A stretch of DNA of 35,017 nucleotides from an uncultured archaeon (GTDB lineage Archaea; Asgardarchaeota; Thorarchaeia; Thorarchaeales; Thorarchaeaceae): contig CAYFTD010000172.1 of the NCBI GenBank assembly GCA_964345915.1, forward strand, positions 1-35,017, read 5' to 3'. Every line of letters begins with the position of its first letter. Within the stretch, counting starts at the first letter, position 1. Below, in pieces: positions 7,674-35,017 of the stretch. The position numbers and the translations under genes are program-made. Below the pieces are notes generated by a model. It made no database searches. It was given only the letters and a program-made list of their open reading frames with translations, and was not told where the DNA came from.

Positions 7674-7784
7674 GCTCCGGTAGATGTGCTATGAGAATCA
7701 TCATGGTATTGCCGTGTGTAGTCCGGCCCAGCATGGGGGACTCTCGATCCCCCGACCCGGGTTCAAATCCCGGCCGGAGCACCA
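7674..7784 (+). tRNA. tRNA-Glu: tRNA-Glu (anticodon CUC) with a ~33-nt intron in the D-arm region and genomically encoded CCA
   Basis: The 5' acceptor GCTCCGG (7674-7680) pairs with CCGGAGC (7774-7780). T-arm is CCGGG-TTCAAAT-CCCGG. Anticodon stem GGGGA/TCCCC has loop CTCTCGA (CTC at 7743-7745). The D-arm GTGTAGTCCGGCCCAGCAT resumes at ~7716, leaving 7683-7715 as extra sequence. A73 plus CCA occupy 7781-7784. Confidence 0.75.
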
Positions 7785-19661: not shown

Positions 19662-20018
19662 TGTGAATGGCGCCCTTTTTGTGAATAGTCTACAGAAAAG
19701 GGACCTCAAATCAGTCCGTGAGGGCTGATGGGACCCCATAGAGGTCCGTAGTCCTGTGAATGAAGCCACCCCTTGGTTTCCAGTGGAATGGGATAACTAG
19801 AGATATGAAATGCTTGTTGAGTCATTCACAAAGTACATAGTTTGGTGAACAAGAGAAGAACTGGAGAATGGGCCAATTTCCTGATTTAGAGGCACCATAG
19901 GCCTTCTTTTGTGTTTTAAGGGATTCACAAGCTGCCAGCACAGTTATAGCATAACGGACGTGTTCTGAATGCGTACAGACGCATTATGTAGCCGTTACCA
20001 TGGTATTGGCAATTCACA
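19662..20018. repeat. Mirrored heptamer array: TGTGAAT x3 (19662, 19680, 19755), then ATTCACA x3 (19824, 19923, 20012)
   Basis: Six exact 7-mers in one 496-bp spacer. All forward copies are left of the ORB-like box at 19768-19788 and all reverse copies are right of it. Near-copies are TGTGAAC at 20054, GGTGAAC at 19844 and ATTCACg at 19627. Confidence 0.7.
19768..19788 (-). promoter_or_regulatory. ORB-type origin recognition box (copy A)
   Basis: The reverse complement TTCCACTGGAAACCAAGGGGT combines a TCCA-N2-GGAAA dyad with a G-string, the form of archaeal Orc1/Cdc6 ORB elements. It is 20/21 identical to copy B. Confidence 0.55.
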
Positions 20019-20104: not shown

Positions 20105-20743
20105 GTGAATGATTTGAAGACTGAAGAGAGAACGGGGTATTTGTACGAGTTCACATACAACTCCGGCCCGGGCCTACGAGAAATCTTTCAGTGCAAATAC
20201 GTCAAGCCTGATGAGGCATTGACAAGATTCCGAAGAATTCTTTCTCTCACAGAGGAGCCATTTGATTTCAGAATCGTAGTACGAGATGAGTCCAAGAGAG
20301 AAGAGTCTAGCTTCCAAGTCGAAGGTGGCAGCATAAAGGAGATGTTCGAGAAATTCAAGGTCTTCTTGGAAGCGAGTACCGGTCATTCCTTTGCCCCGGA
20401 GAAAGAAGAGGCAGTTGATGCTGGGATTGAAGAAATCAGCTATGAGTCAATGAGTAGTTATGAGAAGATGCACATTGTAATATATGCATCCTTCAAGCAC
20501 GGCAAGTTCTCTTCCTTGGATGTTGCCGAGATCTATCAAGCAACATTTAATGAAGACCTACCAAAGAGTACTGCTTCTACGTATCTTGCCCGAATGTGGA
20601 ATGATGGAAAGGGCCATCTTGAAAGACATGGGAATCGTTCGGGCTATACGTATCGACTCAAGACTGAGATCTCGGAAGTCCAGAAAGAAGCTGAGAGAGC
20701 CGAGGGAATTCTTGCTTCTATCCAGCTTCACGTAGGCAAGTAG
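20105..20743 (+). CDS. Hypothetical protein with a C-terminal winged-helix DNA-binding domain
   Basis: 212-aa ORF (GTG 20105; an in-frame TTG at 20114 follows an SD-like GGGTGA). The C-terminal LDVAEIYQATFNEDLPKSTASTYLARMWNDGKGHLERHGNRSGYTYRLK has an HTH-plus-wing pattern. The N-terminal half is unassigned. Confidence 0.6.
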   Translation: MNDLKTEERTGYLYEFTYNSGPGLREIFQCKYVKPDEALTRFRRILSLTEEPFDFRIVVRDESKREESSFQVEGGSIKEMFEKFKVFLEASTGHSFAPEKEEAVDAGIEEISYESMSSYEKMHIVIYASFKHGKFSSLDVAEIYQATFNEDLPKSTASTYLARMWNDGKGHLERHGNRSGYTYRLKTEISEVQKEAERAEGILASIQLHVGK

Positions 20744-22082: not shown

Positions 22083-23488
22083 AGTCGGTTCTCCTTTGCC
22101 GTCAGATATTGATTTAGATACTTGTAGTCTTCCGTAAGTTCTCCCTGATATACAATCACTGCGTTCTTGAGCTCTCTCGGAAGGTCAAGCTCTTCGAATG
22201 GTATTTTGAAGTCTGCTTTTGCAAGCGCAGGTACATAGTCCAAAAGCGTTTCGCTGAATGATGTGGAAGACTCGCGTGGGAGTTCGCATGGGAGATTATC
22301 AACAGCCATTACTACAGGACCATCACCAGACACACCAAGCTTTGCTCGGTCTTCATCTACAATGTACGTGAACGCTGGATTTCCCGGATTTGTGCATCGA
22401 GTAGTGAATTCGATTGCTCCCTCGATATCGCACGAGATGTCACCTATCACCTCGAGTTTGCGGCTCTCGTTGTGCCAGTGTTCTTGCATGAAGTCCTTTC
22501 TCACAAGGCGCGGATATCTCTCAGCCCAGTAGATGCAGTTCATGATTACTGAAAGATAAGGGACATACTTGTGAAAGACTCCCCGGTATTTGGCTGAGCC
22601 ATTCTTGTAGTAGTCCTGAAGAACGAAGTCTGCCGTGGGATCCTTGGGTTCCACCATGTGCTCTTCTTTGAAGATGCACTTGTAGAGGATGTTGTCCTTT
22701 GGATCGGGGATCTCAGAGATATGTTCCGGCTGAACTTCTTCATGAGGAAGTAGGTCAAACATCTCTTGTGCACCGCGTGATACATTCCCGTAACCTGCGA
22801 AGCCCACAATGAATGGAACCATGTGTTTAGGCAGGCCCTCATCAACAATTCGACGACCCAGATACTGGAATTCCTTCTTGAGTTCTGCAAGATTCTTTGC
22901 TTGCAGGGTAGGTTTCATTCCGGAGAAGGGGTTTGGTGTGATCCCTTTGAGGTCAAGGCGATCTCCGAGAACTCGTAGTGTGTCTGATATGCCAGCCATG
23001 CCTGCCCAGTTACCGAAGAAGATTAGCCTTCGACCCTTTTCGTCGATGACTCGTTCATAGTCTATTAGAGTAGCACCCACATCCAGGATTCTCTTTAACA
23101 TAGGCATGTTTTGCTTCTGCCCCTTTATAGTGTGGCTGAAGAAGACGTAGACTGTGCCCCTCTCAAAGAAGTCTGATGGCATCTCCTTGATTCCTAAGAT
23201 GACCGGAATGTTTCTTCCCTTTAGTTGACCAACCTCAGCTCCAACTTCTTTGAACTCGTTAGTGTCAAATGCTCGTTGGTCACTGGGTTCAACAATGAAT
23301 TGAATTTGGTGTTTCTTGGATAGCTCCATAATATGCTTGGGTACAACAGGCACTCTTGTTTCGAAGGCTTTTTCCTCTTGTCGAAGACCAACAGTGTTCA
23401 TGAGATCTCTTCCTTTTGGCTTGTTGATGTGTATCTGGAGGTAGTTCGCGGGGGATTCATCGTCCGCTTTAACCTTTCCATCCCACAT
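22079..23488 (-). CDS. Lysine-ketoglutarate reductase-like protein (AlaDH/PNT-fold; AASS LKR-domain type)
   Basis: YVFFSHTIKGQKQNMPMLKRILDVGATLIDYERVIDEKGRRLIFFGNWAGMAG matches the plant/animal LKR signature (FFSHT.KAQ.ENM.LLD.IL....L.DYE...). GYGNVSRGAQEMF, CIYWAERYPRL and DISCDIEGAIEF are also present. Confidence 0.8.
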   Translation of the reverse strand: MWDGKVKADDESPANYLQIHINKPKGRDLMNTVGLRQEEKAFETRVPVVPKHIMELSKKHQIQFIVEPSDQRAFDTNEFKEVGAEVGQLKGRNIPVILGIKEMPSDFFERGTVYVFFSHTIKGQKQNMPMLKRILDVGATLIDYERVIDEKGRRLIFFGNWAGMAGISDTLRVLGDRLDLKGITPNPFSGMKPTLQAKNLAELKKEFQYLGRRIVDEGLPKHMVPFIVGFAGYGNVSRGAQEMFDLLPHEEVQPEHISEIPDPKDNILYKCIFKEEHMVEPKDPTADFVLQDYYKNGSAKYRGVFHKYVPYLSVIMNCIYWAERYPRLVRKDFMQEHWHNESRKLEVIGDISCDIEGAIEFTTRCTNPGNPAFTYIVDEDRAKLGVSGDGPVVMAVDNLPCELPRESSTSFSETLLDYVPALAKADFKIPFEELDLPRELKNAVIVYQGELTEDYKYLNQYLTAKENRL

Positions 23489-23513
23489 TCAGTATTACTC
23501 GGTCTGAAAATGA

Positions 23514-23525
23514 GAACATGTGTTC
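23514..23525. promoter_or_regulatory. GAACAYGYGTTC box 1 (GAACATGTGTTC)
   Basis: Near-palindromic 12-mer followed by CAGTAATTGG, so GTTCCAGTAA resembles a mini-ORB. It is one of three related 12-mers in the 23.5-24.1 kb spacer. Confidence 0.4.
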
Positions 23526-23844
23526 CAGTAATTGGTTGTCAGAATTGTCGTCGTACTTTCTCTATCTCTATGATTGTAAGCGGGCTCGACAGATCAATGC
23601 GCGTAGAGTGTCTTTCACCAAAGAGCTCCATGGTTATGTCTACTCTTGGAAGACAAGAAGTGGGATTCGCCAAAAGAAGAAACCAGGGTTGATTGACCAA
23701 TGTGAAGGTGCTCAGGCGGTTGCTGATTCTGCAATCCTAGTCCCTGGAGAGTTCAAGCCGGTCTTTGATCAGTTCTTCTTGTCTTACGTGGATATCCTAG
23801 TTCTGAAAGTCTACGAGGTAATTGGTGAGGTGCTGTGGTAGTTA

Positions 23845-23856
23845 GAACACGTGTTC
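23845..23856. promoter_or_regulatory. GAACAYGYGTTC box 2 (perfect palindrome GAACACGTGTTC)
   Basis: Perfect 12-bp palindrome 12 nt left of ORB copy B. Confidence 0.45.
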
Positions 23857-23868
23857 CAACACCCATGG

Positions 23869-23889
23869 ACCCCTTGGTTTCCAGTAGAA
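23869..23889 (-). promoter_or_regulatory. ORB-type origin recognition box (copy B)
   Basis: The reverse complement is TTCTACTGGAAACCAAGGGGT. It directly abuts the AT-rich stretch and is inverted relative to copy C. Confidence 0.6.
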
Positions 23890-24010
23890 AGTCAATTGAG
23901 TTATAATGCGATTAGAAATCAGAAAATATAAATAGGTGTTTATGAAGCTGTAGTATATCTCCATTTTAATTACTTATTATATAACTCGCTGAAAAAACTC
24001 CATAGATCAT
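23890..24010. other. AT-rich candidate duplex-unwinding element
   Basis: About 120 bp that is visibly far more AT-rich than its surroundings (aatcagaaaatataaataggtgtttatg...ccattttaattacttattatataac), bracketed by inverted ORB copies B and C. Confidence 0.55.
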
Positions 24011-24031
24011 CTCCACTGGAAATGAAGGGGT
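24011..24031 (+). promoter_or_regulatory. ORB-type origin recognition box (copy C)
   Basis: CTCCACTGGAAATGAAGGGGT on the + strand: same dyad plus G-string, facing copy B across the AT-rich stretch. Confidence 0.6.
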
Positions 24032-24070
24032 GTTGTGCCATAATATCTGAGTATGACTGGGACATTACTC

Positions 24071-24082
24071 GAACACGCGTTC
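24071..24082. promoter_or_regulatory. GAACAYGYGTTC box 3 (GAACACGCGTTC)
   Basis: Third copy of the 12-mer, 39 nt right of ORB copy C. Confidence 0.4.
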
Positions 24083-24094
24083 TATGTCCCTATG

Positions 24095-24113
24095 ATAATA
24101 CTTGTAATACAAG
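24095..24113. repeat. Bipartite GTAWTAC motif (ATAATACTTGTAATACAAG), containing the perfect palindrome CTTGTAATACAAG
   Basis: Intergenic, 70 bp right of ORB copy C. The 13-bp perfect palindrome is at 24101-24113. Confidence 0.7.
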
Positions 24114-24229
24114 ACTTGGATAGCATACTTGGGAACTAAGTTTCATTATCTATTACCACAAGGTTGATACATGATACACTCTCCCCGTCGTTTCGTCCCA
24201 AAACCACTGGTTAATCGGAGGCTCAATAG

Positions 24230-26122
24230 TTGACCAGGCCAAAGGAATTACTTGAAGACAAAGTTGGCAAGAAGGCCCTACTTCTGGCAAATGAGGCAAT
24301 TGCTCGTGGAGTCCTTGAGGCTGGAGTTCGTCTTGTAGCATTATACCCTGGAACTCCAAGTAGTGAGATAGGAAACAATCTGACCTCAATGGCACCACAC
24401 ATATCCAACTTCTATTTCGAATTCAGTGCAAATGAGAAGGTTGCTTTGGAAGTGGCTGGAGCCGCTGCTGTGGCCGGTGTTAGATCTATGATGGTCTGCA
24501 AGGGGCCTGGTCTCAATGTGGCCGCAGACCCATTCTTTTCTCTAGCATATGTTGGCGTGCGTGCTGGAATGGTGATTGTAGTCGCCGATGATCCGAGTAT
24601 GTGGAGCTCTCAAAACGAGAATGACAGTAGATACTATGCACTGATGGGCAACATGCCAATGATTGAGCCAGCAGATCCTGCAGAAGCCAAGGCAATGTTG
24701 CTGGAGGCGTATGAGATATCGGAGGAATTGGAGCTACCCGTACTTTTCAGAACCACCACCCGTGTCAACCATACCAGAGCTCCAGTTGAGTTCAACAAAA
24801 TCAAAGAGAGGCCAAACACTATAGACTTTGTAAAGGAGCCCTTTCGTTTTGTCCCAATACCTTCCGTGGCAAGGAAACGTCATCCAATACTCTTGGAACT
24901 GATGAAGAGGGCGACTGAAATTTCAGAATCTACATCTCTCAACTTCACGCACGGACAAGGGGACCTTGGGATTATTACTAGCGGAGTTTCTTACAACTAT
25001 GTCCTTGAAGCACTCTCCACTATGAACCTTGAGGCAGAAGTTCTCAAGCTAGGTATGACGCATCCGGTTCCTGAGAAAACCATCATCGACTTTCTGAAGC
25101 GCCACAAGAAAGTTGTCGTGGTCGAAGAGCTTGAGCCTTTCCTGGAAACACACGCTCGACGAATAGCACAACTACGATCAATCCCCGTTGAGATTGTAGG
25201 GAAGGAACAGGACTACTTCTCTCGCGCATACGAATATAGTCCAAGGATTGTCATCGAGGCTCTTTCAAGGATTATGAATCGTAATACAAGTATTAACTGG
25301 AATGCTATTGACCAGAAGGTGAAGAAGCTCCCAGATCTTCCTCCGAGACCACCGTTGTTGTGTGCGGGATGTCCTCATCGAGCTACATATTATGCAATCA
25401 GGAGTGCTACGCGTGGCAAAGCCATATACCCCTCAGACATAGGGTGCTACACTCTAAGCATTTCACCACCACTAGAAACCGCAGATATCCTGTTTGACAT
25501 GGGCTCATCAATAACCACTGCTTGCGGCCTAGCACGTGTGACAAATCAAGATGTCGTGGCATCGATAGGTGATAGTACGTTCTTTGCATCTGGACTTCCA
25601 GGCATTGCAAATGCTGTCTACAATCGTCATCCAATCAGTCTGGTTGTCCTTGACAATCGTACTACTGCAATGACTGGCCATCAACCGCACCCTGGTACTG
25701 GAATCACCGGAATGCAAGAAGAGGTACCCCCTTTGGACATAGCAGAAGCATGTAGGGGTCTTGGCGTGGAGTATGTGATAGATGTAGATCCATTCGCACC
25801 TTTGGCAAATCTTGTTGCACAGGTTCGAGAGATGGTGACTTGGGTAAGGGAGAACGAAGCACCTGCAGTGATGGTGTCAAAGGCACCCTGTGCTCTTCTC
25901 ACAGCCGCTAATCGACGTAAGACCGGAGAGTATCCTCCAGACTACTATGTTGACGAGGAGCTATGCAATACATGCAAACGTTGTCTGAATCGTCTATCCT
26001 GTCCAGCGATGTATCTCGATTCTGAAACTGAGAAGGCCGTGATTGAAGAAACTCTTTGCAACCTTTGTGGTACCTGTACAGACGTATGTCCTCAAGGTGC
26101 AATCAAGCAAGAGGAGGTATGA
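24230..26122 (+). CDS. iorA: Indolepyruvate:ferredoxin oxidoreductase, alpha subunit
   Basis: 630 aa. NEAIARGVLEAGVRLVALYPGTPSSEI, TPP site GDSTFFASGLPG, and C-terminal ferredoxin-like Cys motifs (CNTCKRCLNRLSCP, CNLCGTCTDVCP). TTG start 8 nt after a GGAGG. Confidence 0.9.
   Translation: MTRPKELLEDKVGKKALLLANEAIARGVLEAGVRLVALYPGTPSSEIGNNLTSMAPHISNFYFEFSANEKVALEVAGAAAVAGVRSMMVCKGPGLNVAADPFFSLAYVGVRAGMVIVVADDPSMWSSQNENDSRYYALMGNMPMIEPADPAEAKAMLLEAYEISEELELPVLFRTTTRVNHTRAPVEFNKIKERPNTIDFVKEPFRFVPIPSVARKRHPILLELMKRATEISESTSLNFTHGQGDLGIITSGVSYNYVLEALSTMNLEAEVLKLGMTHPVPEKTIIDFLKRHKKVVVVEELEPFLETHARRIAQLRSIPVEIVGKEQDYFSRAYEYSPRIVIEALSRIMNRNTSINWNAIDQKVKKLPDLPPRPPLLCAGCPHRATYYAIRSATRGKAIYPSDIGCYTLSISPPLETADILFDMGSSITTACGLARVTNQDVVASIGDSTFFASGLPGIANAVYNRHPISLVVLDNRTTAMTGHQPHPGTGITGMQEEVPPLDIAEACRGLGVEYVIDVDPFAPLANLVAQVREMVTWVRENEAPAVMVSKAPCALLTAANRRKTGEYPPDYYVDEELCNTCKRCLNRLSCPAMYLDSETEKAVIEETLCNLCGTCTDVCPQGAIKQEEV
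25281..25296. repeat. Bipartite GTAWTAC motif (GTAATACAAGTATTAA)
   Basis: Inverted heptamers in 9-bp register, inside iorA. Confidence 0.6.
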
Positions 26123-26748
26123 CAGTGACTAGTAATAATAGTAATACAGTCAATGTGGCTATTGCTGGTGTTGGAGGCCAGGGCGTGTTGTCTCTTGCTG
26201 AGATATTAGCAAAGGCGGCCTTGGCTGACTCTCATAATGTCCGTGTGGGTGAGATTCACGGAATGGCCCAACGTGGGGGACATGTCGTCTGTACCGTCAG
26301 AATTGGAGATGGTGTACGAGGACCAATTGTGGATCCCGGTTCTGCCAACTTACTTGTTGGTTTTGAACCAATTGAAACACTACGTGAGATCCACTATGTG
26401 ATGGAGGACGGTTGCGTACTGATGAGCTCTCATGTTCAATATCCAGTAGCTGTTTCAATGGGCAACACGGAGTATCCAGCACATGAGAAGATCATTGCAG
26501 ATATGAGAAAATTCACGGATTGTATCCTAGAAATTAATGCAATGGAGCTCGCGAAAGAGGCCGGGAACGCTCTGTCCCTAAATATGGTAATGCTAGGCGG
26601 AGTTCTTGGAACCGGAGTGACACCAATAAAGAAGGATACAACCATTGAGGTGGTACGCACTACATTCTCCAAGAAGTATGAGTCCGTCAATCTCAAGGCC
26701 CTAGAACTTGGAATGTCGTCAGTTCAAGCATTGGCCAAGCATGCATAG
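26119..26748 (+). CDS. iorB: Indolepyruvate:ferredoxin oxidoreductase, beta subunit
   Basis: The ATG at 26119 overlaps the iorA stop (ATGA) and follows GAGGAGG. NVAIAGVGGQGVLSLAEILAKAAL and GEIHGMAQRGGHV are typical IorB / gamma-domain motifs. The tracked 26056 start would overlap iorA. Confidence 0.9.
   Translation: MTVTSNNSNTVNVAIAGVGGQGVLSLAEILAKAALADSHNVRVGEIHGMAQRGGHVVCTVRIGDGVRGPIVDPGSANLLVGFEPIETLREIHYVMEDGCVLMSSHVQYPVAVSMGNTEYPAHEKIIADMRKFTDCILEINAMELAKEAGNALSLNMVMLGGVLGTGVTPIKKDTTIEVVRTTFSKKYESVNLKALELGMSSVQALAKHA
26132..26148. repeat. Bipartite GTAWTAC motif (GTAATAATAGTAATACA)
   Basis: Direct heptamers in 9-bp register at the 5' end of iorB (codons SNNSNT). Confidence 0.55.
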
Positions 26749-26781
26749 TGGTTCTCATATGTGAAAGATGGGTCGGTATGA

Positions 26782-26800
26782 CTTGTATTACAATCATTAC
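26782..26800. repeat. Bipartite GTAWTAC motif (CTTGTATTACAATCATTAC)
   Basis: Intergenic, just after iorB. Confidence 0.65.
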
Positions 26801-27562: not shown

Positions 27563-28141
27563 GTGAATGATGCCATGAGTTCCAAGAAATCGGATCCGAA
27601 GAGAGATGGAGTTTCAATCAAGCAACTTGCCACCTCCACACGGCGAGTGTTGAAGGAGCCAATACTGAAGGCACTCCTCGATCAATCAGTACTAACCACG
27701 ACCCAGTTGGAAACCCTACTAATCGACTTGGTCGTGGAGGATGAGTATGGCAGCCACATCCCATACGATGACAAAGCCTCCTTTCGATCAAGGTCTGGAA
27801 GAAAGGCAACCGGCGTCACCCGCGGTGCTTTCAACAGAACACTGAAACAAGCACGAAGGAATGTTACTCGATGCTTCTACACGATGCTTCTTCTAGCATA
27901 CCTAGGCATGTTCGATCACACACTCTTTCGTCCTTTCGAAGAGGTTGCTACCAGAATCGGTGATTACCGGAGAGTACGTGACGTACTCTCAGGCAAAGCA
28001 GAGTTGTCAAAGGAAGAAATCGAGAGCTATCGTCTGGTCGAGGAAACGATACTGTCCGCACTAGAAGAGCTCAATGCGTCATCAGCCCTCAAGTCAGAGC
28101 TCTCGAGGCGTAAGGCAGTAACTACAGCCAGACAACGATGA
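27563..28141 (+). CDS. Hypothetical protein with a putative HTH (sigma-r4 / HTH_10-like) segment
   Basis: 192 aa (GTG 27563; ATG 27575 after an SD-like GGTGA). GRKATGVTRGAFNRTLKQARRNV resembles the ..G.S...v...l..A...l recognition-helix pattern. The C-terminal part is helical and acidic. Confidence 0.5.
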   Translation: MNDAMSSKKSDPKRDGVSIKQLATSTRRVLKEPILKALLDQSVLTTTQLETLLIDLVVEDEYGSHIPYDDKASFRSRSGRKATGVTRGAFNRTLKQARRNVTRCFYTMLLLAYLGMFDHTLFRPFEEVATRIGDYRRVRDVLSGKAELSKEEIESYRLVEETILSALEELNASSALKSELSRRKAVTTARQR

Positions 28142-28144: not shown

Positions 28145-28160
28145 GTAATACAATTAATAC
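28145..28160. repeat. Bipartite GTAWTAC motif (GTAATACAATTAATAC)
   Basis: Intergenic, between the 27563 and 28206 genes, immediately upstream of the TATA-like box. Confidence 0.65.
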
Positions 28161-28205: not shown

Positions 28206-29447
28206 GTGGCTATCTTGACCAATGAGGACGACAAAAGGTGGTTCATGAGAGCGCTTAAGGACAAGGCAGCAGAATCCGAGAAAGAGCAGCAAATCAGTCA
28301 TCTTGCTGATGCAATCGGCGAACGAAGGGGTAGAGACCTGCTCGATGCCGTTGCTACAACAGAGCGTGATGAAGGATGGAATACCGCATTGCAATATCTG
28401 ATCAAGGCAGCGGAGGCCGATTACGTCACACCGGCAAGTTTCGGAAAAACACGTACAAGGATTGAGCCAATCAAGTACCGAGAGATGGTATTTGAGCTTC
28501 TTTCAGCTATCGGTCTGGAGCCTGTAGACTCCGATACAATCAATCTTCTCAAGAAACTGGAAGACGAAGACTCATTGGCCGAGGCCACACACTCTTTTGG
28601 TGCGCACGTCCAAAGACTGAGTCTACAGCAAATACAAAACGGTGATACTCTATTCTTTGATCTTCCAATGTCGAATGTTCAAGCGTTCGAGGAGCTAGAA
28701 ACTACCCTTGAATCCGCCAGGCTGGGAGAGATTGCCGGTCTTAGACTGATTCAAGATGGGAATGCAATTGATGTTACACCTCTTTGGTACTCAGAGTATG
28801 GCCGAAGGGCACTTTCGGAGTTGGGAGTCAAAGGAACACTACTGCCGACAGACCAGTTTGAAGTGGTATTATCAGTAATACAAGTATCACCACGCACCCG
28901 TGGCCAGATTCATATTCAAAGAGAGGAAGATGCCAGTCTAAAACACCCAGTTATCCCATCAAACTCATTGTATGCAAATCTGCTGAAGGCCATAATCAAT
29001 CAGGATCTGGACACCCTCTCTTCCCTTGCCAGTAAACACTCGTTCCCCGCCCTTAACGTCGTACTCGAGAACACAGTGACCCAGTATCATGAATCATCAT
29101 CGAGTGAGAACTACCGACTTGTACTTGAGTGTATGAAGAGCCATGTAGCAATTCGAAGCATTGACTCGATTATTGCACTCGAGAAGTTTGTAAGGCTTGA
29201 CGATCCCCGCATTGCAACACCAGCAATCAATGTTCTTGGAAATCTCTACAATGATTCTTCGGTTCTGACTCTTGCTGAAACTGTGTGCCGTGGCAAGAAG
29301 GAATGGATGATCCACCCTATACTGGATGCCCTAGAGAACATCTCCAAGAAGTGTCCTGAAACAATGCCTGCAATTGAAGGAATACTAGAATCTGATTGCA
29401 AGAATCGAACCATACTCAAACGTTTCCTAGGCAGAATCTCGAAGTAG
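28206..29447 (+). CDS. Hypothetical protein, C-terminal HEAT/ARM-like repeats
   Basis: 413-aa ORF with a GTG start. The C-terminal third has HEAT-like repeats (DDPRIATPAINVLGNLYN, HPILDALENISKKCPE). The N-terminal two-thirds are unassigned. Confidence 0.55.
   Translation: MAILTNEDDKRWFMRALKDKAAESEKEQQISHLADAIGERRGRDLLDAVATTERDEGWNTALQYLIKAAEADYVTPASFGKTRTRIEPIKYREMVFELLSAIGLEPVDSDTINLLKKLEDEDSLAEATHSFGAHVQRLSLQQIQNGDTLFFDLPMSNVQAFEELETTLESARLGEIAGLRLIQDGNAIDVTPLWYSEYGRRALSELGVKGTLLPTDQFEVVLSVIQVSPRTRGQIHIQREEDASLKHPVIPSNSLYANLLKAIINQDLDTLSSLASKHSFPALNVVLENTVTQYHESSSSENYRLVLECMKSHVAIRSIDSIIALEKFVRLDDPRIATPAINVLGNLYNDSSVLTLAETVCRGKKEWMIHPILDALENISKKCPETMPAIEGILESDCKNRTILKRFLGRISK
28865..28890. 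repeat. Triple GTAWTAC motif (GGTATTATCAGTAATACAAGTATCAC)
   Basis: Three alternating heptamers in 9-bp register inside the HEAT-like gene. It shares GGTATTAT-NN-GTAWTACA with the 30423 and 33443 copies. Confidence 0.65.
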
Positions 29448-29498: not shown

Positions 29499-30896
29499 GT
29501 GAGGATTATGACGGACTCGCAAGTGGACAAGTTCCACGAGATTGATCTCTTTTTCAATCCTAAGCGAGTGGCACTAGTCGGAGCTTCTTCCGACCATCGA
29601 AAACTAGGCCATACAATTCTGACGAATCTCTTGGAGTCCGAGGTCGAAACTTATCCAGTGACACGAAGTGGGAACCAAATACTTGGAGCCAAGGCTTATC
29701 CAAGTCTAGCAGATCTTCCAAAGGCGGTCGATTTGGTCATAGTGGCAGTCGCAGCAAAACATTGTTCGAGTCTGATGGCCGAAGTCCAAAAGGCAGGAGC
29801 CAAAGCTGCGGTTGTCGTTTCAGGAGGGTTCAGTGAAATAGGCAGTGCTGGTTCAAAGCTTGAGGGAGAGCTTGTGAAGGCAGCAAAGAATGCTGGCGTC
29901 AGGATCATAGGACCGAATTGTGTTGGTGTTTCCAACACCAAACTCTTCAATGGAACCTTCACTATGATGCCTGAATCAGGCAATATTGCTCTCGTTTCTC
30001 AGAGCGGTGCATTGGGTGGAATGATCGTCTATGAAACTCGAGCGAAAGGGATTGGGATGAGCAAGTTCGCAAGTTTGGGAAACGCAGCCGATGTACAATT
30101 CTCTGAAATCATTGACTACCTGGGGGAGGATCCTGGGACGACTGTAGTTGCTGTGTACGTTGAAGGAGTGGACCACGGCAGGGCCTTTTTTGAGTCACTT
30201 CATGGAGCCGCACGCAAGAAACCAGTTGTCATACTGAAGGGCGGCAGAAGCGAACTCGGTGGAAGGGCCACATTGTCCCACACTGGATCTTTGGCTGGTT
30301 CAGTCGAAGTGTTCAATGGGATGATTCGGCAAGCACGCTGTGTTACTGTTCCTACTCTGAACAGCCTCCTTGAAGTGTGCAAACTCTTTGACTATCAACC
30401 ACTCCCCAAGGGACGTAATGTTGGTATTATTAGTAATACAGGCGGTGCAGGAGTTCTCGCCTCTGATGCCGCGTCTGATTATGGATTGACCGTCCCTATC
30501 CTTGACAAGAGTACTAGACAGGAATTAAACCAGATTCTTCCTGACATGGCATCAGTAAGTAATCCTGTAGATCTAGTTGCAAGTGGGGGCCGGAGAGAAT
30601 ACCGTGCGAGTACCGAGCTGCTGCTGAAGAATCCCAATATAGACATTCTGTTAGTCATATGTGCAGTTCCAACATTCGCTGGTATGACACTGACGGAGCA
30701 CGCTGAAGGAACTCTCGAAGGCATTCGGGACGCCTCTGAGAGAAAGCCTGTTGTTGGAGTATGGTTAGCCGCAGATGTAGGAGCACCTGGAAGGAACTTA
30801 CTCGAAACGAACAAAGTTCCATGCTATGATGATCCATCTCTGGCAGCACTGTGCATTTCCCGAGTTACGGAATACGCAGAGATGCAAATGAAATGA
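29499..30896 (+). CDS. acdA: Acetyl-CoA synthetase (ADP-forming) / acyl-CoA synthetase, alpha subunit
   Basis: CoA-binding N-terminus FFNPKRVALVGASSDHRKLGH, IGPNCVGV, LVSQSGALG, phosphohistidine-loop region SHTGSLAG and GIISNTGGAGVLASD. The likely ATG start is at 29508. Confidence 0.85.
   Translation: MRIMTDSQVDKFHEIDLFFNPKRVALVGASSDHRKLGHTILTNLLESEVETYPVTRSGNQILGAKAYPSLADLPKAVDLVIVAVAAKHCSSLMAEVQKAGAKAAVVVSGGFSEIGSAGSKLEGELVKAAKNAGVRIIGPNCVGVSNTKLFNGTFTMMPESGNIALVSQSGALGGMIVYETRAKGIGMSKFASLGNAADVQFSEIIDYLGEDPGTTVVAVYVEGVDHGRAFFESLHGAARKKPVVILKGGRSELGGRATLSHTGSLAGSVEVFNGMIRQARCVTVPTLNSLLEVCKLFDYQPLPKGRNVGIISNTGGAGVLASDAASDYGLTVPILDKSTRQELNQILPDMASVSNPVDLVASGGRREYRASTELLLKNPNIDILLVICAVPTFAGMTLTEHAEGTLEGIRDASERKPVVGVWLAADVGAPGRNLLETNKVPCYDDPSLAALCISRVTEYAEMQMK
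30423..30440. repeat. Bipartite GTAWTAC motif (GGTATTATTAGTAATACA)
   Basis: Inside the ACD alpha gene, across the codons for the conserved GIISNT. Confidence 0.6.
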
Positions 30897-30924
30897 CGAA
30901 TTTGCAGCAGAAGCATATCTCCTT

Positions 30925-30947
30925 GTATCATGTGTATTACAAGAAGT
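30925..30947. repeat. Bipartite GTAWTAC motif (GTATCATGTGTATTACAAGAAGT); left arm of a 15-bp inverted repeat
   Basis: It lies in the spacer between the convergent ACD and RHH genes. TGTATTACAAGAAGT (30933-30947) is the exact reverse complement of 32265-32279. Confidence 0.7.
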
Positions 30948-30973
30948 GAATGAGTTTGATTCGGTTGATGAGG

Positions 30974-31261
30974 CTACCCTTGTAGATGTCTGCTGGCTAT
31001 GTCCGGAAACTCTTCAGACAAAGCTTCCCGTAATCTCCGTTCAACCCACATACTCAGATTGATTGCCCTTTCATTTCTCACGTTTTGAAGACATGATCTA
31101 AGCTCTGTGGTGAACGAGAACGAAACAATTGGACTCTTTCGTTCTTTGTTAGGCACTGCTACGACAGACCTACTTCTTTCAGCGACTGTGGTTCTCTCCA
31201 TAGCTGTTGGTCTTGCATCTCTCTCTTCTTCGGAATCTCGATACTTCTTTAGAACACTCAA
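30974..31261 (-). CDS. Ribbon-helix-helix (CopG/Arc-like) small DNA-binding protein
   Basis: IVSFSFTTELRSCLQNVRNERAINLSMWVERRLREAL gives a beta-strand plus two helices in the RHH pattern. The TTG start at 31261 is 2 nt after the upstream AAA+ stop; the alternative Met (MERTT) gives 75 aa. Confidence 0.55.
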   Translation of the reverse strand: MSVLKKYRDSEEERDARPTAMERTTVAERSRSVVAVPNKERKSPIVSFSFTTELRSCLQNVRNERAINLSMWVERRLREALSEEFPDIASRHLQG

Positions 31262-31263
31262 AC

Positions 31264-32238
31264 CTAGCGCACCTCTCTAAGCAATTCAGCATATGCTTCT
31301 GATACTAGTTTGGCAGTTTCTCTGTCCACTTCTGGATCTCCGTTGCGTCTGAAACCCTCTGCGGCCACCTGTTGACATCCTCTTGCCAACATCCGGATGT
31401 CACGTGGGTTCCCCTTGGCCGCTTCATTGATGACCTCAATTGCAGCATCATCGAATGGGTAGATCTCAAAGCTACCAGGGTCAAAGCTGTCTATGCGTCC
31501 TTGAGCATAGTAGATTCTTCTCCCGATGAACTCCTTTGCTTTCTGATTATCAAACGGTGGGACATCCAAAGGCTCAGTCCTGTCTGCAATCTGTGGTAAA
31601 AACGAAAGCATGGCATTCCAGTAGATTGCGGTGCCAGACATTATCAAAGTGACAATCGGTTCATCGAGCACGTCCGGATAATCGGCTTTCATTTCTTGAG
31701 TTGGAAGATCAGCCAGATAACGCAGCTTGTGGAATGCCGTTTCCTGATTGTCTGCGACATCCTCAAGGAACAGTGCAGTGCGACAGTTCTCTTCGATATA
31801 CCTTCTCACAGATTCCTGAGCGACAGTCTCTATGATTTGACTGGACTCCCATGACCTTCGATACTTTATCCTCAAAGAGTCGGCAATGGCAGCCGACATC
31901 TGTTTCTCATAGAGTCCTGTCATGCCAACGTAACCAGTCACGAATTTGTTTCCTTTGCGATCAGCTAAGGTCGGCAGGTCTCTGAGAGCAAGCAACATCA
32001 GCGTACTCTTCCCAGATCCCACTGGGCCTCTAAGGAAGATATGCCGTTCATTAGTGAGAATCAGATCCACAAGGTGATCCAGGAATTCCGGCCATTCAAT
32101 GTAGAGTCGTGAGTCCGGCATCTTGTAACCACGAAAGGGAGAGAACCGAGCACCAATCCGCTCTTCCCAAGCCCGCAAAACTTCCTTGCGAGTGTTGAAG
32201 TGGCGGATCAACGCACTCTCATGAATCGCTATTGTCAT
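31264..32238 (-). CDS. AAA+ ATPase, Orc1/Cdc6-like (or ExeA/TniB-like AAA_22) module without a winged-helix domain
   Basis: Walker A FLRGPVGSGKSTL, Walker B ALFLEDVAD, sensor-1-like LIMSGT, PPF..QKAKEFIGRRI and a lid with GNPRDIRMLARGC (compare GDAR..L.LL of Cdc6). The protein ends ~40 aa after the lid. Confidence 0.7.
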   Translation of the reverse strand: MTIAIHESALIRHFNTRKEVLRAWEERIGARFSPFRGYKMPDSRLYIEWPEFLDHLVDLILTNERHIFLRGPVGSGKSTLMLLALRDLPTLADRKGNKFVTGYVGMTGLYEKQMSAAIADSLRIKYRRSWESSQIIETVAQESVRRYIEENCRTALFLEDVADNQETAFHKLRYLADLPTQEMKADYPDVLDEPIVTLIMSGTAIYWNAMLSFLPQIADRTEPLDVPPFDNQKAKEFIGRRIYYAQGRIDSFDPGSFEIYPFDDAAIEVINEAAKGNPRDIRMLARGCQQVAAEGFRRNGDPEVDRETAKLVSEAYAELLREVR

Positions 32239-32262
32239 GATGTGTACCCCACGGTATCACAT

Positions 32263-32280
32263 GTACTTCTTGTAATACAA
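32263..32280. repeat. Bipartite GTAWTAC motif (GTACTTCTTGTAATACAA); right arm of a 15-bp inverted repeat
   Basis: It lies 27-42 nt upstream of the AAA+ gene start (32238, minus strand). ACTTCTTGTAATACA is at 32265-32279. Confidence 0.7.
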
Positions 32281-32355
32281 TCCTCCGATGAGTCAGTGGC
32301 TAATAAGTAGTACGGTGAATCTTCCGGTGTCTACTCTTTTCACACCAACAAGACG

Positions 32356-32370
32356 TAACCTTTTTGAACA
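32356..32370 (+). promoter_or_regulatory. BRE/TATA-like element TAACCTTTTTGAACA
   Basis: Same AACC-TTTTT pattern, ~60 nt upstream of the ATG at 32431. Confidence 0.3.
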
Positions 32371-32430
32371 GAATGAAGCAGCGAGGGGGCTAGTCCGGAC
32401 ACGAACCGGTCAATACGAAAGGAGTAACTA

Positions 32431-32712
32431 ATGATGGACGTCGACCGAATCCGGCATGTACTGAACTCGTTGATGATACTGAGCTTCCTAGTCTTTGGAG
32501 CACTAGCTGCAACAATCTTGATTACCGATGCGCCACTGACGAGTTCGACAGTCGCTCTTCCTTTTGCCTTTCTATTCATCTCATTCATGACTCTTATCGT
32601 GACCGGACAAATCAACGACCGACCCAGACTCGTGAAGAGATACGTTCGAGATTGGCTCCTCATCTGTGCCCTTGCCATAATCATGAGTGCACTTGTAGTG
32701 ACTTTCACATGA
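32431..32712 (+). CDS. Small membrane protein (3 predicted TM helices)
   Basis: 93 aa. GGAG lies 8 nt upstream of ATGATG. Three clean hydrophobic helices. The overlapping minus-strand ORF (32340-32708) looks like a shadow. Confidence 0.5.
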   Translation: MMDVDRIRHVLNSLMILSFLVFGALAATILITDAPLTSSTVALPFAFLFISFMTLIVTGQINDRPRLVKRYVRDWLLICALAIIMSALVVTFT

Positions 32713-32797
32713 TGCCCATCACAAGAGTTTTAGGACATCAGTATGTGACACGGCTCAGCCTAGGAAATCCGTATTCACCTCTCTGAAGGGACTGCCA

Positions 32798-33430
32798 ATG
32801 AGTAAGATTCTGCCAGGAACCAAGACAACGCGGATGGAGCTTCTTCGATTGAAGAACAGAATGAGGCTGGCAGAGCGCGGTCACGATCTACTCAAGGAGA
32901 AACGTGACTCACTTATCATGGAGCTCTTCAACGTCCTTGCCGAGGTCAAGGACACTCGAGAGAAAGTTGAAACCGCTCTCTCAGAAGCCTTCTCCGCTCT
33001 CACAAAGACCAAGATGATAATGGGACCTTCCGAAGTTGTAGAGTTTGCCAATGCGAGCAGAGTTCAGGCTGACCTGAGAATCTCTACGCGTTCTATGATG
33101 GGCGTCTTGGTACCAGTCCTATCAGTTGAGCAATACGTACCAGAACTTCCATACTCCCTACCAGACTCCAGTGTGCAACTCGACGTCATGTCAACTAAAT
33201 TCAAAGAAGCATTGAAGGCGGTAGTACGCCTAGCCGAGATCGACTCAACAGTCAAGAGACTAGCTGTCGAAGTCGAACGTACTAAGAGACGCGTGTCAGC
33301 TCTTGAAACAATTGTAATTCCTCGACTTGATGCAACCGCAAGGTATGTGAAGCAAGCACTAGAAGAACGAGAGCGGGAGGACTTCTTCAGACTCAAATTC
33401 CTAAAGGAAAGAATGGAGTCCGAACAGTAA
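32798..33430 (+). CDS. atpD: A-type (V-type) ATP synthase subunit D
   Basis: PGTKTTRMELLRLKNRMRLAERGHDLLKEKRDSLIMEL and ...RRVSALETIVIPRL...ALEEREREDFFRLK form the canonical subunit D coiled-coil sequence. Confidence 0.9.
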   Translation: MSKILPGTKTTRMELLRLKNRMRLAERGHDLLKEKRDSLIMELFNVLAEVKDTREKVETALSEAFSALTKTKMIMGPSEVVEFANASRVQADLRISTRSMMGVLVPVLSVEQYVPELPYSLPDSSVQLDVMSTKFKEALKAVVRLAEIDSTVKRLAVEVERTKRRVSALETIVIPRLDATARYVKQALEEREREDFFRLKFLKERMESEQ

Positions 33431-33442
33431 TGCACAACTACT

Positions 33443-33460
33443 GGTATTATTTGTATTACA
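33443..33460. repeat. Bipartite GTAWTAC motif (GGTATTATTTGTATTACA)
   Basis: It fills most of the 30-bp spacer between the convergent atpD and nac genes. Confidence 0.65.
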
Positions 33461-33853
33461 CTATGTACGTCTGAGCTTCAAGATTGCCGCGGCCAAATCG
33501 CCATCGCTCTCCTTCAGTGCTTGCTTTGCAGTTTCTATGTCAACACCAGTTTGACTGGCTACCAGTGCGGCATCTTCCATGGGAATCTCAATCTCCTTTT
33601 CTGGTTCGGACGTTACATCCTCAGAAACACCTGCCTCAGTAGTCACTGCTCTCTCTGATTTACTGCCCGACACCTGAAATGACTCACTACCCGCCTGCTT
33701 AATCATCACGACTTGTGGATCTGCGATTAGCCACTCCTTGTTGTCGAAGCGGAATATCACTTCCTTCACACCATTAACGTCCTTTTGTTCTATTCCCATT
33801 TGTTTCATCATTCTGGCAATGGCTCTTGGCGACATACCACGTCTACGTGACAT
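33461..33853 (-). CDS. nac: Nascent polypeptide-associated complex protein (NAC alpha homolog)
   Basis: NAC domain (MMKQMGIEQKDVNGVKEVIFRFDNKEWLIADPQVVMIKQAG) plus a C-terminal UBA (EDAALVASQTGVDIETAKQALKESDGDLAAAILKL). Confidence 0.9.
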   Translation of the reverse strand: MSRRRGMSPRAIARMMKQMGIEQKDVNGVKEVIFRFDNKEWLIADPQVVMIKQAGSESFQVSGSKSERAVTTEAGVSEDVTSEPEKEIEIPMEDAALVASQTGVDIETAKQALKESDGDLAAAILKLRRT

Positions 33854-33938
33854 TCATCATACCTCGGACTATTCCAAGATCTTCTATCTTGATACTCAAA
33901 GTCAGGGATAAAATAATTGTGCTCTATCAGTCATCATC

Positions 33939-34766
33939 TCAAGACTGAACGACCTTGATGTCAAGGACAGAATGCCGAATGCTAGGCGCATACCATTTGA
34001 TGCCGCGTATGGAGATGTCTGAGATGAAGCCCCTACTAGAACAAATGTCTTCAACATCTCGTATCAACTTGTCCAATTCCTTGTCAGGCAAAGCAATATG
34101 CATGTGAATCATCCCGCCTTCGGGCACTAACGCTTCCAATGCATGAGGAAGAAAATGATGCGTATCATGCAGATATCCCATGACGACCCTATTCACACCA
34201 TGAATGGGATGAACCACTCGACAATCACCATGAATGGCTTCAACCAAGTCATCAAGATCATTCAGTCGAATGTTGGTAACGAGGAACTTGTATGCTTCCG
34301 GATTCAACTCAATCGCCTTGACTCTTACTTGCCTATTCTTCGCCATTGGTAAAGCAAATTGACCGACACAAGCAAACATGTCGAGAACACACTCTCCAGA
34401 CTGGACTATGGATGCCATGCGTTCCCTCTCTCCTCTATTGCCACCAGAGAAAGTGATGCGTGTTGGATCAAGTCTGAACTTGACTCCGTTCTCAACGTGT
34501 GTTGTGACTGTGTCACTATCACCGGCTACCAGAGTGTAATCTGGTATCCGCATGACTCCAGACGTTGCACCGGTACGCACTGCAACCGAATCGATTCTTC
34601 CGTCATACTTGAGAGTGGCCTCTCCGAGCAAGGGCAAATATGGGTGCAGACCGAAATCAACATGTAGTAGGGCAACATGTCCTACGAGATGATATCCGCT
34701 AGGGAGAGGTATGCCTGAGGGGACTTGGTCTTTGAGGCTAGTTCTAAGGAACTCTCTGTACTTCAT
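33939..34766 (-). CDS. Trm5/Taw2 (Met-10+) family tRNA modification enzyme
   Basis: GHVALLHV, SAM site VLDMFACVGQFALPMA, AIELNPEAYKFLVTNIRLN and HGDCR. The Trm5 NLP motif position reads MGYL, which I associate with the Taw2/TYW2 branch (memory-based). Confidence 0.8.
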   Translation of the reverse strand: MKYREFLRTSLKDQVPSGIPLPSGYHLVGHVALLHVDFGLHPYLPLLGEATLKYDGRIDSVAVRTGATSGVMRIPDYTLVAGDSDTVTTHVENGVKFRLDPTRITFSGGNRGERERMASIVQSGECVLDMFACVGQFALPMAKNRQVRVKAIELNPEAYKFLVTNIRLNDLDDLVEAIHGDCRVVHPIHGVNRVVMGYLHDTHHFLPHALEALVPEGGMIHMHIALPDKELDKLIRDVEDICSSRGFISDISIRGIKWYAPSIRHSVLDIKVVQS

Positions 34767-34813
34767 GAGGACTCACAGAAAGCAGTGATTGACTACAATC
34801 AGGGTACAACGTA

Positions 34814-35017
34814 TCAGCAATACAAAGTGCTCGGAGCGCCATCACCCTTACCTCGACTCTGAATCTTTGCTATTCCCTTGCTAAAGTCTTCCTGAATTAC
34901 ACAGACTCTACTTTCGCGGATAGCAAACATACCGGCTTCGGTGCAGATTATCTTGATGTCAGCACCCGTCAGATTTGCCGTGGCAGATACCAGTCTATCA
35001 AAATCAAGTTCGGTATG
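34814..35017 (-). CDS. pan: Proteasome-activating nucleotidase, 3' fragment (gene runs off the window)
   Basis: Not in the ORF track. The reverse-strand translation from 35017 gives HTELDFDRLVSATANLTGADIKIICTEAGMFAIRESRVCVIQEDFSKGIAKIQSRGKGDGAPSTLYC*, the conserved AAA lid / C-terminus of PAN/Rpt. The stop is at 34814-34816. Confidence 0.85.
   Translation of the reverse strand, partial: HTELDFDRLVSATANLTGADIKIICTEAGMFAIRESRVCVIQEDFSKGIAKIQSRGKGDGAPSTLYC

Follow-up and report, generated by a model that had tools for sequence, protein, structure and literature searches.

A conserved AAA+ ATPase and ribbon-helix-helix gene pair accompanied by phased DNA arrays around a predicted Orc-type origin in Thorarchaeota

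In a stretch of 35,017 nucleotides from an uncultured Thorarchaeaceae archaeon (GenBank assembly GCA_964345915.1, contig CAYFTD010000172.1; the whole stretch is hereafter called the window), we characterized a two-gene unit on the minus strand that encodes an AAA+ ATPase and a small ribbon-helix-helix (RHH) protein. The pair is kept as neighbors in Candidatus Thorarchaeota (hereafter Thor) and in other Asgard lineages, it is accompanied by tandem arrays of the palindrome GTAWTAC in 9-bp phase, and the block of arrays holds a predicted Orc-type replication origin (Table 1). The best reading of this locus, which we favor tentatively and at slightly less than an even chance, is a module of array cluster, RHH adaptor and AAA+ ATPase with a partition-like or origin-organizing role. 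RHH dimers would bind successive units of the phased arrays. One array separates the operon's TATA box from its ribosome-binding site, and binding there would autoregulate the promoter; at the dozen other arrays around the origin, binding would build a larger nucleoprotein complex. The N-terminal KYRK peptide of the RHH protein would recruit the ATPase, which may oligomerize and use ATP to assemble, remodel or move this complex. We infer the RHH-array binding, the peptide-ATPase contact and the cellular role from sequence comparisons.

Results

An ATPase-RHH gene pair conserved in Asgard archaea

Close relatives of the ATPase number about 136; with few exceptions they come from Thor (Asgard archaea), their identity to it is 76–94%, and the full-length ones are nearly all 321–346 aa long, most exactly 324. 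Scanning one genome per species, we retrieved 76 Thor loci with an ATPase identity of 76–98%. Nearly all share the gene order Trm5/Taw2, NAC, V-ATPase D, small membrane protein, ATPase, RHH, ADP-forming acetyl-CoA synthetase (ACS), 413-aa protein and 192-aa protein, and the pair is essentially single-copy at this same site among housekeeping genes in the 76 genomes. In most loci the ATPase exceeds every neighbor in conservation, V-ATPase D, ACS and NAC included. The RHH gene lies downstream of it in all 72 loci with a downstream flank, at ≤10 nt in most and ≤~140 nt in all, and an outgroup locus (L071; ATPase identity 63%) keeps the pair despite a rearranged neighborhood. The ATPase family is tiny: a HMMER search with the family profile against 1.84 billion representative proteins returned only 29 at E ≤ 1e-3. 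Remote full-length members come from metagenome-assembled genomes (MAGs) labelled Heimdall/Gerdarchaeota, Freyarchaeota, Odinarchaeia and Bathyarchaeota (the first three hereafter Heimdall, Frey and Odin). In Heimdall, Frey and Odin genomes the ATPase gene is likewise followed by an RHH-type gene, the RHH-like C-terminus of the small Frey and Odin partners being judged by eye from the translations. A preliminary description of this DNA, made from the window alone, had proposed to follow the co-occurrence of the two genes across archaea, and we found them kept as neighbors in four Asgard lineages.

A variant occurs on two contigs of MAGs labelled Bathyarchaeota (L082:4089-5021 and L213:8867-9799), where the gene of a KaiC/RecA-like ATPase overlaps the ATPase stop codon and replaces that of the RHH protein; on one of these contigs, a small gene, RHH-like by eye, lies just upstream of the ATPase. 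This KaiC/RecA-like (DnaB_C-like) partner carries three copies of VLSKY[RK]K in its N-terminus. Judged from these genomes, the module appears to be chromosomal and vertically inherited, in four Asgard lineages so far and as a variant in the MAGs labelled Bathyarchaeota.

The ATPase is encoded on the minus strand, within the region given in the preliminary description, and all the motif strings quoted there (GPVGSGKST, FLED, SGT, PPF...R and GNPRDIRMLARGC) are found in the translation. Homologues with as little as 21–45% identity all retain the Walker A G/K and the sensor-1 T, as well as the PF motif and the R of sensor 2. The chain ends with the last helix of the lid (helices 231–245, 264–274, 278–299 and 306–323 in an AlphaFold2 model), and a winged helix, whose absence had also been described, was not found: the protein stops at residue 324 and gave no WHD_Cdc6 match in Pfam. 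Neither a transmembrane segment nor a peptidoglycan-binding domain was found in the 324 residues by sequence and Pfam.

The closest sequence relatives are of the ExeA type. The window ATPase scores 20.7 bits against AAA_22 (PF13401), below the gathering score of 27; several homologues of 80–85% identity carry a precomputed PF13401 match, and several remote family members exceed the cut-off, among them P0123 (34.4 bits) and P0137 (52.8 bits). Among NCBIfam profiles the top match is TIGR03015 (ExeA-like), with all curated profiles sub-threshold, and the JGI annotation names homologues ExeA. BLASTP aligns residues 41–294 with the ExeA-type protein P0140, which consists of AAA_22 (89.5 bits) and PG_binding_1, at 26% identity and E 5e-14, and the ExeA-type alignment covers the AAA+ module in full; both the PF...PD segment near the N-terminus and the sensor-2 lid with its G-x-PR fall within it. 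Orc1/Cdc6 profiles score far lower relative to their thresholds (TIGR02928, 11.8 bits vs 181.3; PF24389, ORC-CDC6-like, 16.5 vs 27), and a PDB sequence search with the ATPase profile gave P-loop matches only. At the level of the fold, the top Foldseek matches of the moderate-quality AlphaFold2 model (pLDDT 66.6) are the archaeal Orc1/Cdc6 structures 1w5t and 2qby (E 1.5e-5, TM 0.28–0.34), and eukaryotic ORC/Cdc6 from Drosophila is also among the best (TM ~0.3). In the same modest-quality model, two helices (111–121 and 132–150) lie between strands 98–105 (beta2) and 152–161 (beta3). The ATPase is thus best described, from sequence and model, as a divergent ExeA/AAA_22-type protein that appears Orc1/Cdc6-like at the fold level only and is not a member of Orc1/Cdc6. 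Of the earlier Orc1/Cdc6-like label the structural part holds, whereas the sequence gives an ExeA/AAA_22-type protein, and the profile searches that had been suggested place the protein firmly in no family (AAA_22 and TIGR02928 scores above).

The open reading frame (ORF) of the RHH protein begins 2 nt past the TAG stop of the ATPase, in agreement with the preliminary description, which had given it as a protein of 75–95 aa. Because homologues are called at 88–105 aa, the 95-aa form with a TTG start, rather than the 75-aa form, is the likely product of the gene. The window protein has no Pfam match and no PDB sequence match. Its Heimdall orthologue, a protein of 110 aa that starts MSLLQKYRKEE and is encoded after the ATPase, passes the RHH_1 profile (PF01402; 23.2 bits, cut-off 20.5) and aligns with the Thor profile over its full length in hhalign (98.35%, E 1e-14); given this homology, we assign the window protein to the RHH class. 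In alignments, MSLLGKYRKEEE is conserved at the N-terminus and a stretch of 55 residues at the C-terminus, and the low-complexity linker between them varies. In the AlphaFold2 monomer a short helix at the N-terminus is followed by a disordered linker, then by an extended segment at 44–50 and by helices at 52–65 and 69–84, with pLDDT ~80 over the strand-helix-helix part. The N-terminus MSLLxKYRKEE is common to the Thor and Heimdall proteins. Because essentially the same peptide occurs on two unrelated partners of homologous ATPases, the RHH protein and the KaiC/RecA-like protein, we read it as the probable target of the ATPase, and the comparison suggests that the KYRK peptide is a probable docking site.

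Phased GTAWTAC arrays accompany the pair

The window holds 15 copies of GTAWTAC, against 1.8 expected. For 560 of the 775 perfect copies in the Thor loci a partner (≤1 mismatch) lies at ±9 bp, and for 152 at 18 bp; three-unit arrays scoring ≥17/21 number 7 in the window and 0 in 100 shuffles. GTAWTAC is therefore the unit of tandem arrays with a 9-bp period, each of two to three or more units, and no lone heptamer; the clustering seen in the preliminary description stands, and its view of the motif as a heptamer on its own does not. A motif copy precedes the ATPase start in 75/75 Thor loci with a full gene start (at −10 to −89, mostly −36 to −63), and in most loci another comes shortly after the stop codon of the RHH gene (~+1255 to +1400, counted from the ATPase start). 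The sites are enriched between genes, near gene starts and stops; several arrays lie 30–60 nt upstream of start codons and several just 3' of stop codons.

The pair is also bracketed by TGTATTACAAGAAGT, an exact 15-bp inverted repeat (30933–30947 on the plus strand, 32265–32279 on the minus strand), and matches to it with ≤3 mismatches number 8 against 1.05 expected. The repeat, described earlier, is exact in the window, and the 15-bp identity of its arms is restricted to the source genome and two 98%-identical ones, while other Thor species share a core of 7–11 bp. As ends of a mobile element the repeat was rejected, being absent beyond near-identical genomes. The preliminary description had offered, as its alternative, a remnant of a mobile element with an ExeA/TniB-type transposition ATPase; a defense or toxin-antitoxin pair is a related possibility. 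AAA_22 and TniB are related families, and the TniB profile matches two remote ATPase homologues, one above (23.7 bits, cut-off 22.4) and one below the cut-off (16.7 bits); RHH proteins are common antitoxins, the antitoxin PrpA is the second, non-significant, Foldseek match of the RHH model, and the exact repeat encloses the pair. However, Pfam scans of the window ORFs gave no transposase or integrase domain, PADLOC was empty except for one match at E 0.038, the long repeat is confined to near-identical genomes, and the motif occurs at 12 sites in the 19–34 kb block and so marks no element end. Because the pair is single-copy in fixed synteny in 76 species, among housekeeping genes, and its ATPase is in most loci the best-conserved protein of the block, we exclude a mobile remnant or defense island as extremely improbable.

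Upstream of the operon, most Thor loci show by eye the same order (a few are arranged otherwise): a TATA element, ~22 nt, the 25-nt sequence GTATTAC-aa-GAAGTAC-wt-GTGATAC, a GAGGT Shine-Dalgarno sequence and the ATG. In the window the TATA element and the first array unit are 21–22 nt apart and the array includes the right arm of the inverted repeat; most other Thor genomes have the promoter element in the variant ACCACACnTTTTATAT. This array is a probable operator overlapping the predicted transcription start. RHH proteins are classic autorepressors, and since the array spans the expected transcription start, the classical site of an RHH autorepressor, autorepression is proposed for this operon.

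The arrays belong to the locus of the pair. In the window, all those with a phased partner lie at 19.2–33.5 kb, a block of ~15 kb, and none lies at 1–19 kb; in the Thor loci, sites with phased partners become scarce past about −2.5 kb on the far, upstream side of the ATPase. In ten Heimdall genomes (flanks of up to ±10 kb), partnered arrays are confined to the ~3.6 kb between −26 and +3570, relative to the ATPase start, and an AT-rich, gene-free stretch of 950 bp after the RHH gene holds five or six of them. Neighboring genes vary between lineages, and the GTAWTAC arrays stay with the pair in both Thor and Heimdall. We scanned 596 Gb of genomes with a stringent 22-nt three-unit pattern, which matched at least 120 stretches. 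Among the matches listed (120 stretches), 16 are from Thor and one is from Heimdall, and these 17 all fall at the locus of the pair (17/17); the other stretches listed match no gene of the locus, and nearly all hold 1–4 motif copies. A genome-wide promoter or start-site element was considered and rejected, given the confinement of the arrays to 19.2–33.5 kb in the window and to −26 to +3570 in Heimdall and the position of the listed scan matches at the locus.

Within genes, the arrays constrain codon choice. Codons 306–314 of ACS spell GTAATAT-tg-GTATTAT-ta-GTAATAC, and in eight of these nine codons the commonest synonymous codon reaches a frequency of 0.85–1.00; the remaining codon has 0.76, the mean over the gene is 0.53, and directly past the array the value falls to ~0.4. 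Across the poorly conserved 413-aa gene, conservation over nine codons is highest at the array (0.57 vs 0.29). Because of the fixed synonymous codons in ACS and this conserved stretch, we conclude that the arrays are selected as DNA and not via protein.

A plainer rival to the favored module is an ordinary autoregulated operon, in which the RHH protein would repress its own and perhaps a few neighboring promoters and the ATPase would serve a role away from DNA, such as ExeA-like envelope or pilus assembly, the other arrays being read by a different factor or forming regulatory sites of an origin-proximal regulon. ExeA/GspA is indeed the closest sequence family, a T2SSE-type ATPase is encoded in synteny with the pair, together with a 352-aa partner, in both Thor and Heimdall, several arrays have the promoter-like distance of 30–60 nt from start codons, and autorepression is common RHH behavior. 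Yet arrays also lie between convergent genes, in synonymously constrained coding sequence and in the gene-free Heimdall region; they accompany the pair wherever the neighboring genes change between lineages; the ATPase has no transmembrane or peptidoglycan-binding part; and a tail-linker-RHH architecture together with the extreme conservation of the ATPase exceeds the needs of a private repressor. We consider this explanation unlikely, with a small but real chance of being correct.

The arrays could also act in RNA, as elements of 5' or 3' untranslated regions or of coding sequence that an RNA-binding factor recognizes, or by forming hairpins. The 25-nt operator element, at or after the predicted transcription start, can form a stem of 8–10 bp in which GTATTACA pairs with TGTGATAC, and the arrays just 3' of stop codons would suit such a role. 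Against this, a perfect palindrome that recurs in 9-bp phase, as the unit does, is the mark of a dimer bound to double-stranded DNA; the stem arms are invariant and show no covariation; arrays occur in either transcriptional context and in the gene-free region; and a scan of the window with Rfam returned tRNA matches only and no family for the arrays. An action in RNA is very unlikely on this evidence.

A predicted Orc-type origin within the array block

An Orc-type origin is predicted inside the Thor array block, at 23.87–24.03 kb, which bears out the earlier claim that the motif array lies beside an origin: a pair of origin recognition boxes (ORBs) encloses an AT-rich candidate unwinding region. 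The ORB pair consists of the 20-nt inverted sequences ACCCCTTGGTTTCCAGTAGA and TCCACTGGAAATGAAGGGGT within a 740-bp gap (23488–24230). Each arm (consensus ACCCCTTGGTTTCCAGTGGA) combines a dyad with a G-string, as archaeal origin recognition boxes do. There is a third copy at 19766–19790, and three other Thor loci (L138, L158 and L151) have the same architecture. Arrays flank the pair at 64 bp on the right and ~380 bp on the left. Pfam scans of the window ORFs gave no orc1/cdc6 gene, and none was found around the Thor origin over ~24 kb on its left side and ~14 kb on its right. The Frey locus has a perfect mini-ORB, TCCAGTGGAAAC, upstream of an Orc1/Cdc6 gene that adjoins the gene for PolD DP1, 2.6 kb from the ATPase, and on the Odin contig PolD DP1 adjoins the module.

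Two further observations concern the origin region. A conserved palindrome, GAACAyrTGTTC, occurs three times around the Thor origin (23514–23525, 23845–23856 and 24071–24082), and a similar palindrome directly follows two stop codons in the origin-side region of Frey (L081, 6907–6925 and 7618–7636). The cumulative GC skew (noted for 29500–35017) peaks at ~30–31 kb, at the ATPase-RHH operon, where the peak coincides with a switch in gene orientation and so is not readable as a replication signal from 35 kb alone.

The main rival to the favored module builds on this setting and assigns the pair to origin firing or loading. As an accessory of replication initiation, or a second initiator or loader, the RHH protein would target the ORC-fold ATPase to iteron-like arrays at or near oriC, where it may melt DNA, load or regulate MCM, or license or limit firing, alongside or instead of Orc1/Cdc6. 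The top Foldseek matches are archaeal Orc1/Cdc6 and eukaryotic ORC/Cdc6, and the two helices between beta2 and beta3 of the model are placed as in initiator-clade AAA+ proteins. The distances of the arrays from the window ORB pair, the position of the Frey module relative to Orc1/Cdc6 and the mini-ORB and of the Odin module relative to PolD DP1, the AT-rich gene-free region occupied by Heimdall arrays, and the lack of orc1/cdc6 in the stated flanks of the Thor origin all fit this role, and the KaiC/DnaB_C-like RecA-family partner in one lineage recalls loader-helicase pairs. However, canonical ORB boxes at the Thor origin imply a canonical Orc1/Cdc6 initiator, for which the profiles are far sub-threshold in this ATPase, and most arrays are spread over 15 kb, in and between genes, which fits centromere-like or organizer sites better. 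We give an initiator or loader role a minor though appreciable likelihood.

Table 1. Features of the window discussed in the text (positions in nucleotides; arrays are of GTAWTAC units)
Feature	Position	Strand	Details
AAA+ ATPase gene, 324 aa	31264-32238	minus	ORF with ATG start and TAG stop
RHH protein gene, 95 aa (likely product), tail-bearing	30974-31261	minus	TTG start; N-terminal MSLLGKYRKEEE, disordered linker, C-terminal RHH
BRE/TATA-like promoter element of the operon (putative)	32300-32317	minus	CACCGTAC..CTTATTAG; by eye from ~70 stacked upstream regions
Three-unit array, probable operator	32254-32278		GTATTAC aa GAAGTAC at GTGATAC (minus-strand reading); between TATA box and Shine-Dalgarno; score 18/21, 0/100 shuffles
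Array with left inverted-repeat arm	30925-30949		GTATCAT gt GTATTAC aa GAAGTGA; past RHH stop, between convergent ACS and RHH genes
Array	33444-33468		between convergent V-ATPase D and NAC genes; conserved bin -1500, 0.79 sites per locus
Three-unit array	30415-30439		inside ACS coding sequence; fixed synonymous codons
Three-unit array	28866-28890		inside fast-evolving 413-aa gene; score 19/21
Two-unit array	28145-28160		upstream of 413-aa gene; conserved bin +4000
Three-unit array	26776-26800		upstream of 166-aa gene
Two-unit array	26132-26147		junction of indolepyruvate oxidoreductase (IOR) subunit genes; conserved bin +6000
Array	25281-25296		within IOR alpha gene
Two-unit array	24095-24110		64 bp from right origin recognition box
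Array, outermost of cluster	19219-19234
Orc-type origin (predicted)	23869-24031		inverted ORB pair 23869-23888 and 24012-24031; ~120-bp unwinding region of 25% GC between
192-aa HTH-like protein gene	27563-28141	plus	blastp E 1e-11 to 4e-20 to Heimdall, Frey and Odin neighbors

Neighboring genes and candidate array readers

The 192-aa protein encoded near the pair may be a third component of the module. Relatives of 167–192 aa are encoded close to the pair in the other lineages (L077:8304-8807, L081:9569-10078 and L083:29-604), which makes four Asgard lineages. By eye it has a helix-turn-helix (HTH) of the DUF134/sigma-region-4 type; the DUF134 profile matches the Heimdall orthologue weakly, below threshold (17.8 bits, cut-off 27), and the putative recognition helix is near-identical across the four lineages. 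Two further window proteins, of 212 aa (20105–20743) and 107 aa (23518–23841), have Frey counterparts encoded between Orc1/Cdc6 and the ATPase (L081:5455-6075 and L081:6604-6909; E 1e-11 and 6e-18).

Comparison of the candidate readers with the repeats points to the RHH protein. Its strand reads P[IV][VI]S in both Thor and Heimdall, which also share GTAWTAC. In Odin the strand differs, and the module is surrounded by a repeat of its own, GGAATAY (7 copies vs 1.5 expected, with ~10-bp spacing by eye), in the regions 604–800, 2147–2245 and 2839–3045 of contig L083, with copies just upstream of the starts of the ATPase and PolD DP1. Because the RHH strand varies with the motif while the recognition helix of the 192-aa family stays constant, this co-variation favors the RHH protein as the array reader, although it is confounded by phylogeny.

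Farther from the pair, genes for a T2SSE-family ATPase and a 352-aa zinc-ribbon-like protein lie at 4489–7294 of the window and again at 1945–4506 of the Heimdall contig L077, 1.5 kb from the module, the 352-aa proteins of Thor and Heimdall being 41% identical. A 1264-aa protein (10024–13818) has a central HerA/DUF87 ATPase domain and otherwise no recognized domain. At 7716–7773 there is a marginal, partial Rfam tRNA match (30.7 bits vs 29 gathering), and ARAGORN found no tRNA in the window.

Discussion

The observations of the preliminary description are confirmed, and its interpretation is partly supported: the idea of a split DNA-array machine near the origin stands, the Orc1/Cdc6 label gives way to an ExeA/AAA_22-type protein with an ORC-like fold, and the mobile-element alternative falls. 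We tentatively favor a partition-like or origin-organizing module over a loader and over an ordinary autoregulated operon, and several points weigh against that choice. To our knowledge, known partition ATPases are of the ParA, actin or tubulin type and never AAA+, and the only characterized close relatives of the ATPase that we know of, ExeA/GspA, serve secretin assembly and not DNA. The likeness to ORC proteins comes from a modest model (pLDDT 66.6) with Foldseek TM-scores of ~0.3, and the Foldseek matches of the RHH model are non-significant, SegB at the top with E 1.3 and the antitoxin PrpA second with E 6.5. The arrays are tied to the RHH protein, as far as sequence tells, by adjacency, by the operator position and by a phylogenetically confounded co-variation, and they could instead be read by the 192-aa HTH-like protein, the 212-aa or 107-aa proteins or Orc1/Cdc6. 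In Frey the RHH strand differs and the candidate repeat, GATATCG, is weak and not significant. Within ±10 kb of the Heimdall modules we found neither an ORB-type origin nor GAACA-TGTTC elements, and the uniqueness of the cluster within a genome was only sampled, among the at least 120 matches listed.

This locus is a concrete, testable candidate for a system that organizes, segregates or licenses Asgard chromosomes. Here a small DNA-binding-type protein and private, origin-flanking arrays that override synonymous codon choice come together with a protein that ranks among the best conserved of those specific to the Thorarchaeota lineage. A literature search on Asgard archaea and ExeA, on the motif strings and on Thor promoters found no paper on the ATPase family, the motif or the locus. 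If the RHH protein binds the arrays and the ATPase acts on the complex, this would be the first partition-like or origin-organizing module driven by an ORC-fold AAA+ ATPase, and it would also provide an origin and centromere-like marker for experimental use in Asgard genomes. A bolder claim, that the locus represents a new Asgard class of origin-linked segregation or organization machinery, made of an ORC/ExeA-fold AAA+ motor or remodeler, a tail-bearing RHH adaptor and arrays flanking oriC, seems to us somewhat unlikely; were it true, it would be a fourth kind of prokaryotic DNA-partition logic, found in the closest archaeal relatives of eukaryotes. Should autoregulation be all that the RHH protein does, the locus would still pin a conserved Orc-type origin in Thorarchaeota, and the arrays would still need a reader.

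Comparison with known systems

By sequence, the best relatives of the ATPase, over the whole AAA+ module, are the ExeA/GspA proteins (COG3267, AAA_22, TIGR03015-like). However, the ATPase comes without the membrane anchor, peptidoglycan-binding domain, ExeB or secretin partner of those systems, scores below the AAA_22 cut-off, and belongs to an archaeal module with an RHH protein and DNA arrays. With Orc1/Cdc6 it appears to share an AAA+ core and helical lid with the same order of motifs, and in Thor and Frey a position within a few kb of an ORB-type origin. Unlike Orc1/Cdc6, it has no winged helix, its profile scores are far sub-threshold and its TM-scores ~0.3, and GTAWTAC is not an ORB box.

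TniB/TnsC with TniQ, IstB and DnaC are, as the present ATPase appears to be, initiator-clade-like AAA+ proteins without a sequence-specific DNA-binding domain of their own that are coupled to a partner, and the RecA/DnaB_C-like ATPase partner in one lineage resembles that of DnaC-type loaders. In contrast to those systems, the present locus has no transposase, element ends or mobility, its partner is an RHH protein, and its TniB matches are marginal and limited to distant homologues. Bacterial ParABS near oriC offers another parallel, in about a dozen short palindromic sites close to the origin, several of them in genes, beside the genes of the presumed binding system. There, however, ParB is an HTH CTPase clamp and ParA a Walker ATPase, neither of which has homology to the proteins here, and the sites are single 16-bp palindromes, whereas the present ones are phased multi-unit arrays.

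The closest parallel in gene organization is with type Ib partition systems (ParF-ParG, delta-omega) and archaeal SegAB, and it also has its limits. The NTPase here is an AAA+ protein of the ExeA/ORC type and not a Walker-type ParA/SegA with a deviant Walker A motif; the window RHH protein has no detectable sequence relation to SegB, ParG or omega; and the Thor sites extend over 15 kb around the origin, partly inside genes. SegB has been reported mainly from Sulfolobales-type archaea and a few euryarchaea, and it consists of a conserved N-terminal part that binds SegA, a variable middle and an RHH domain; SegB binds three repeats upstream of segAB (PMC12139799). Like those systems, the module described here is a two-gene operon with the NTPase first and a small RHH protein second; as in SegAB, the RHH partner carries its conserved tail at the N-terminus and its RHH at the C-terminus, with a variable or flexible linker in between; and, as in both, short repeats in tandem arrays lie beside the operon, one of them at its own promoter, with the sites gathered in one chromosomal neighborhood.

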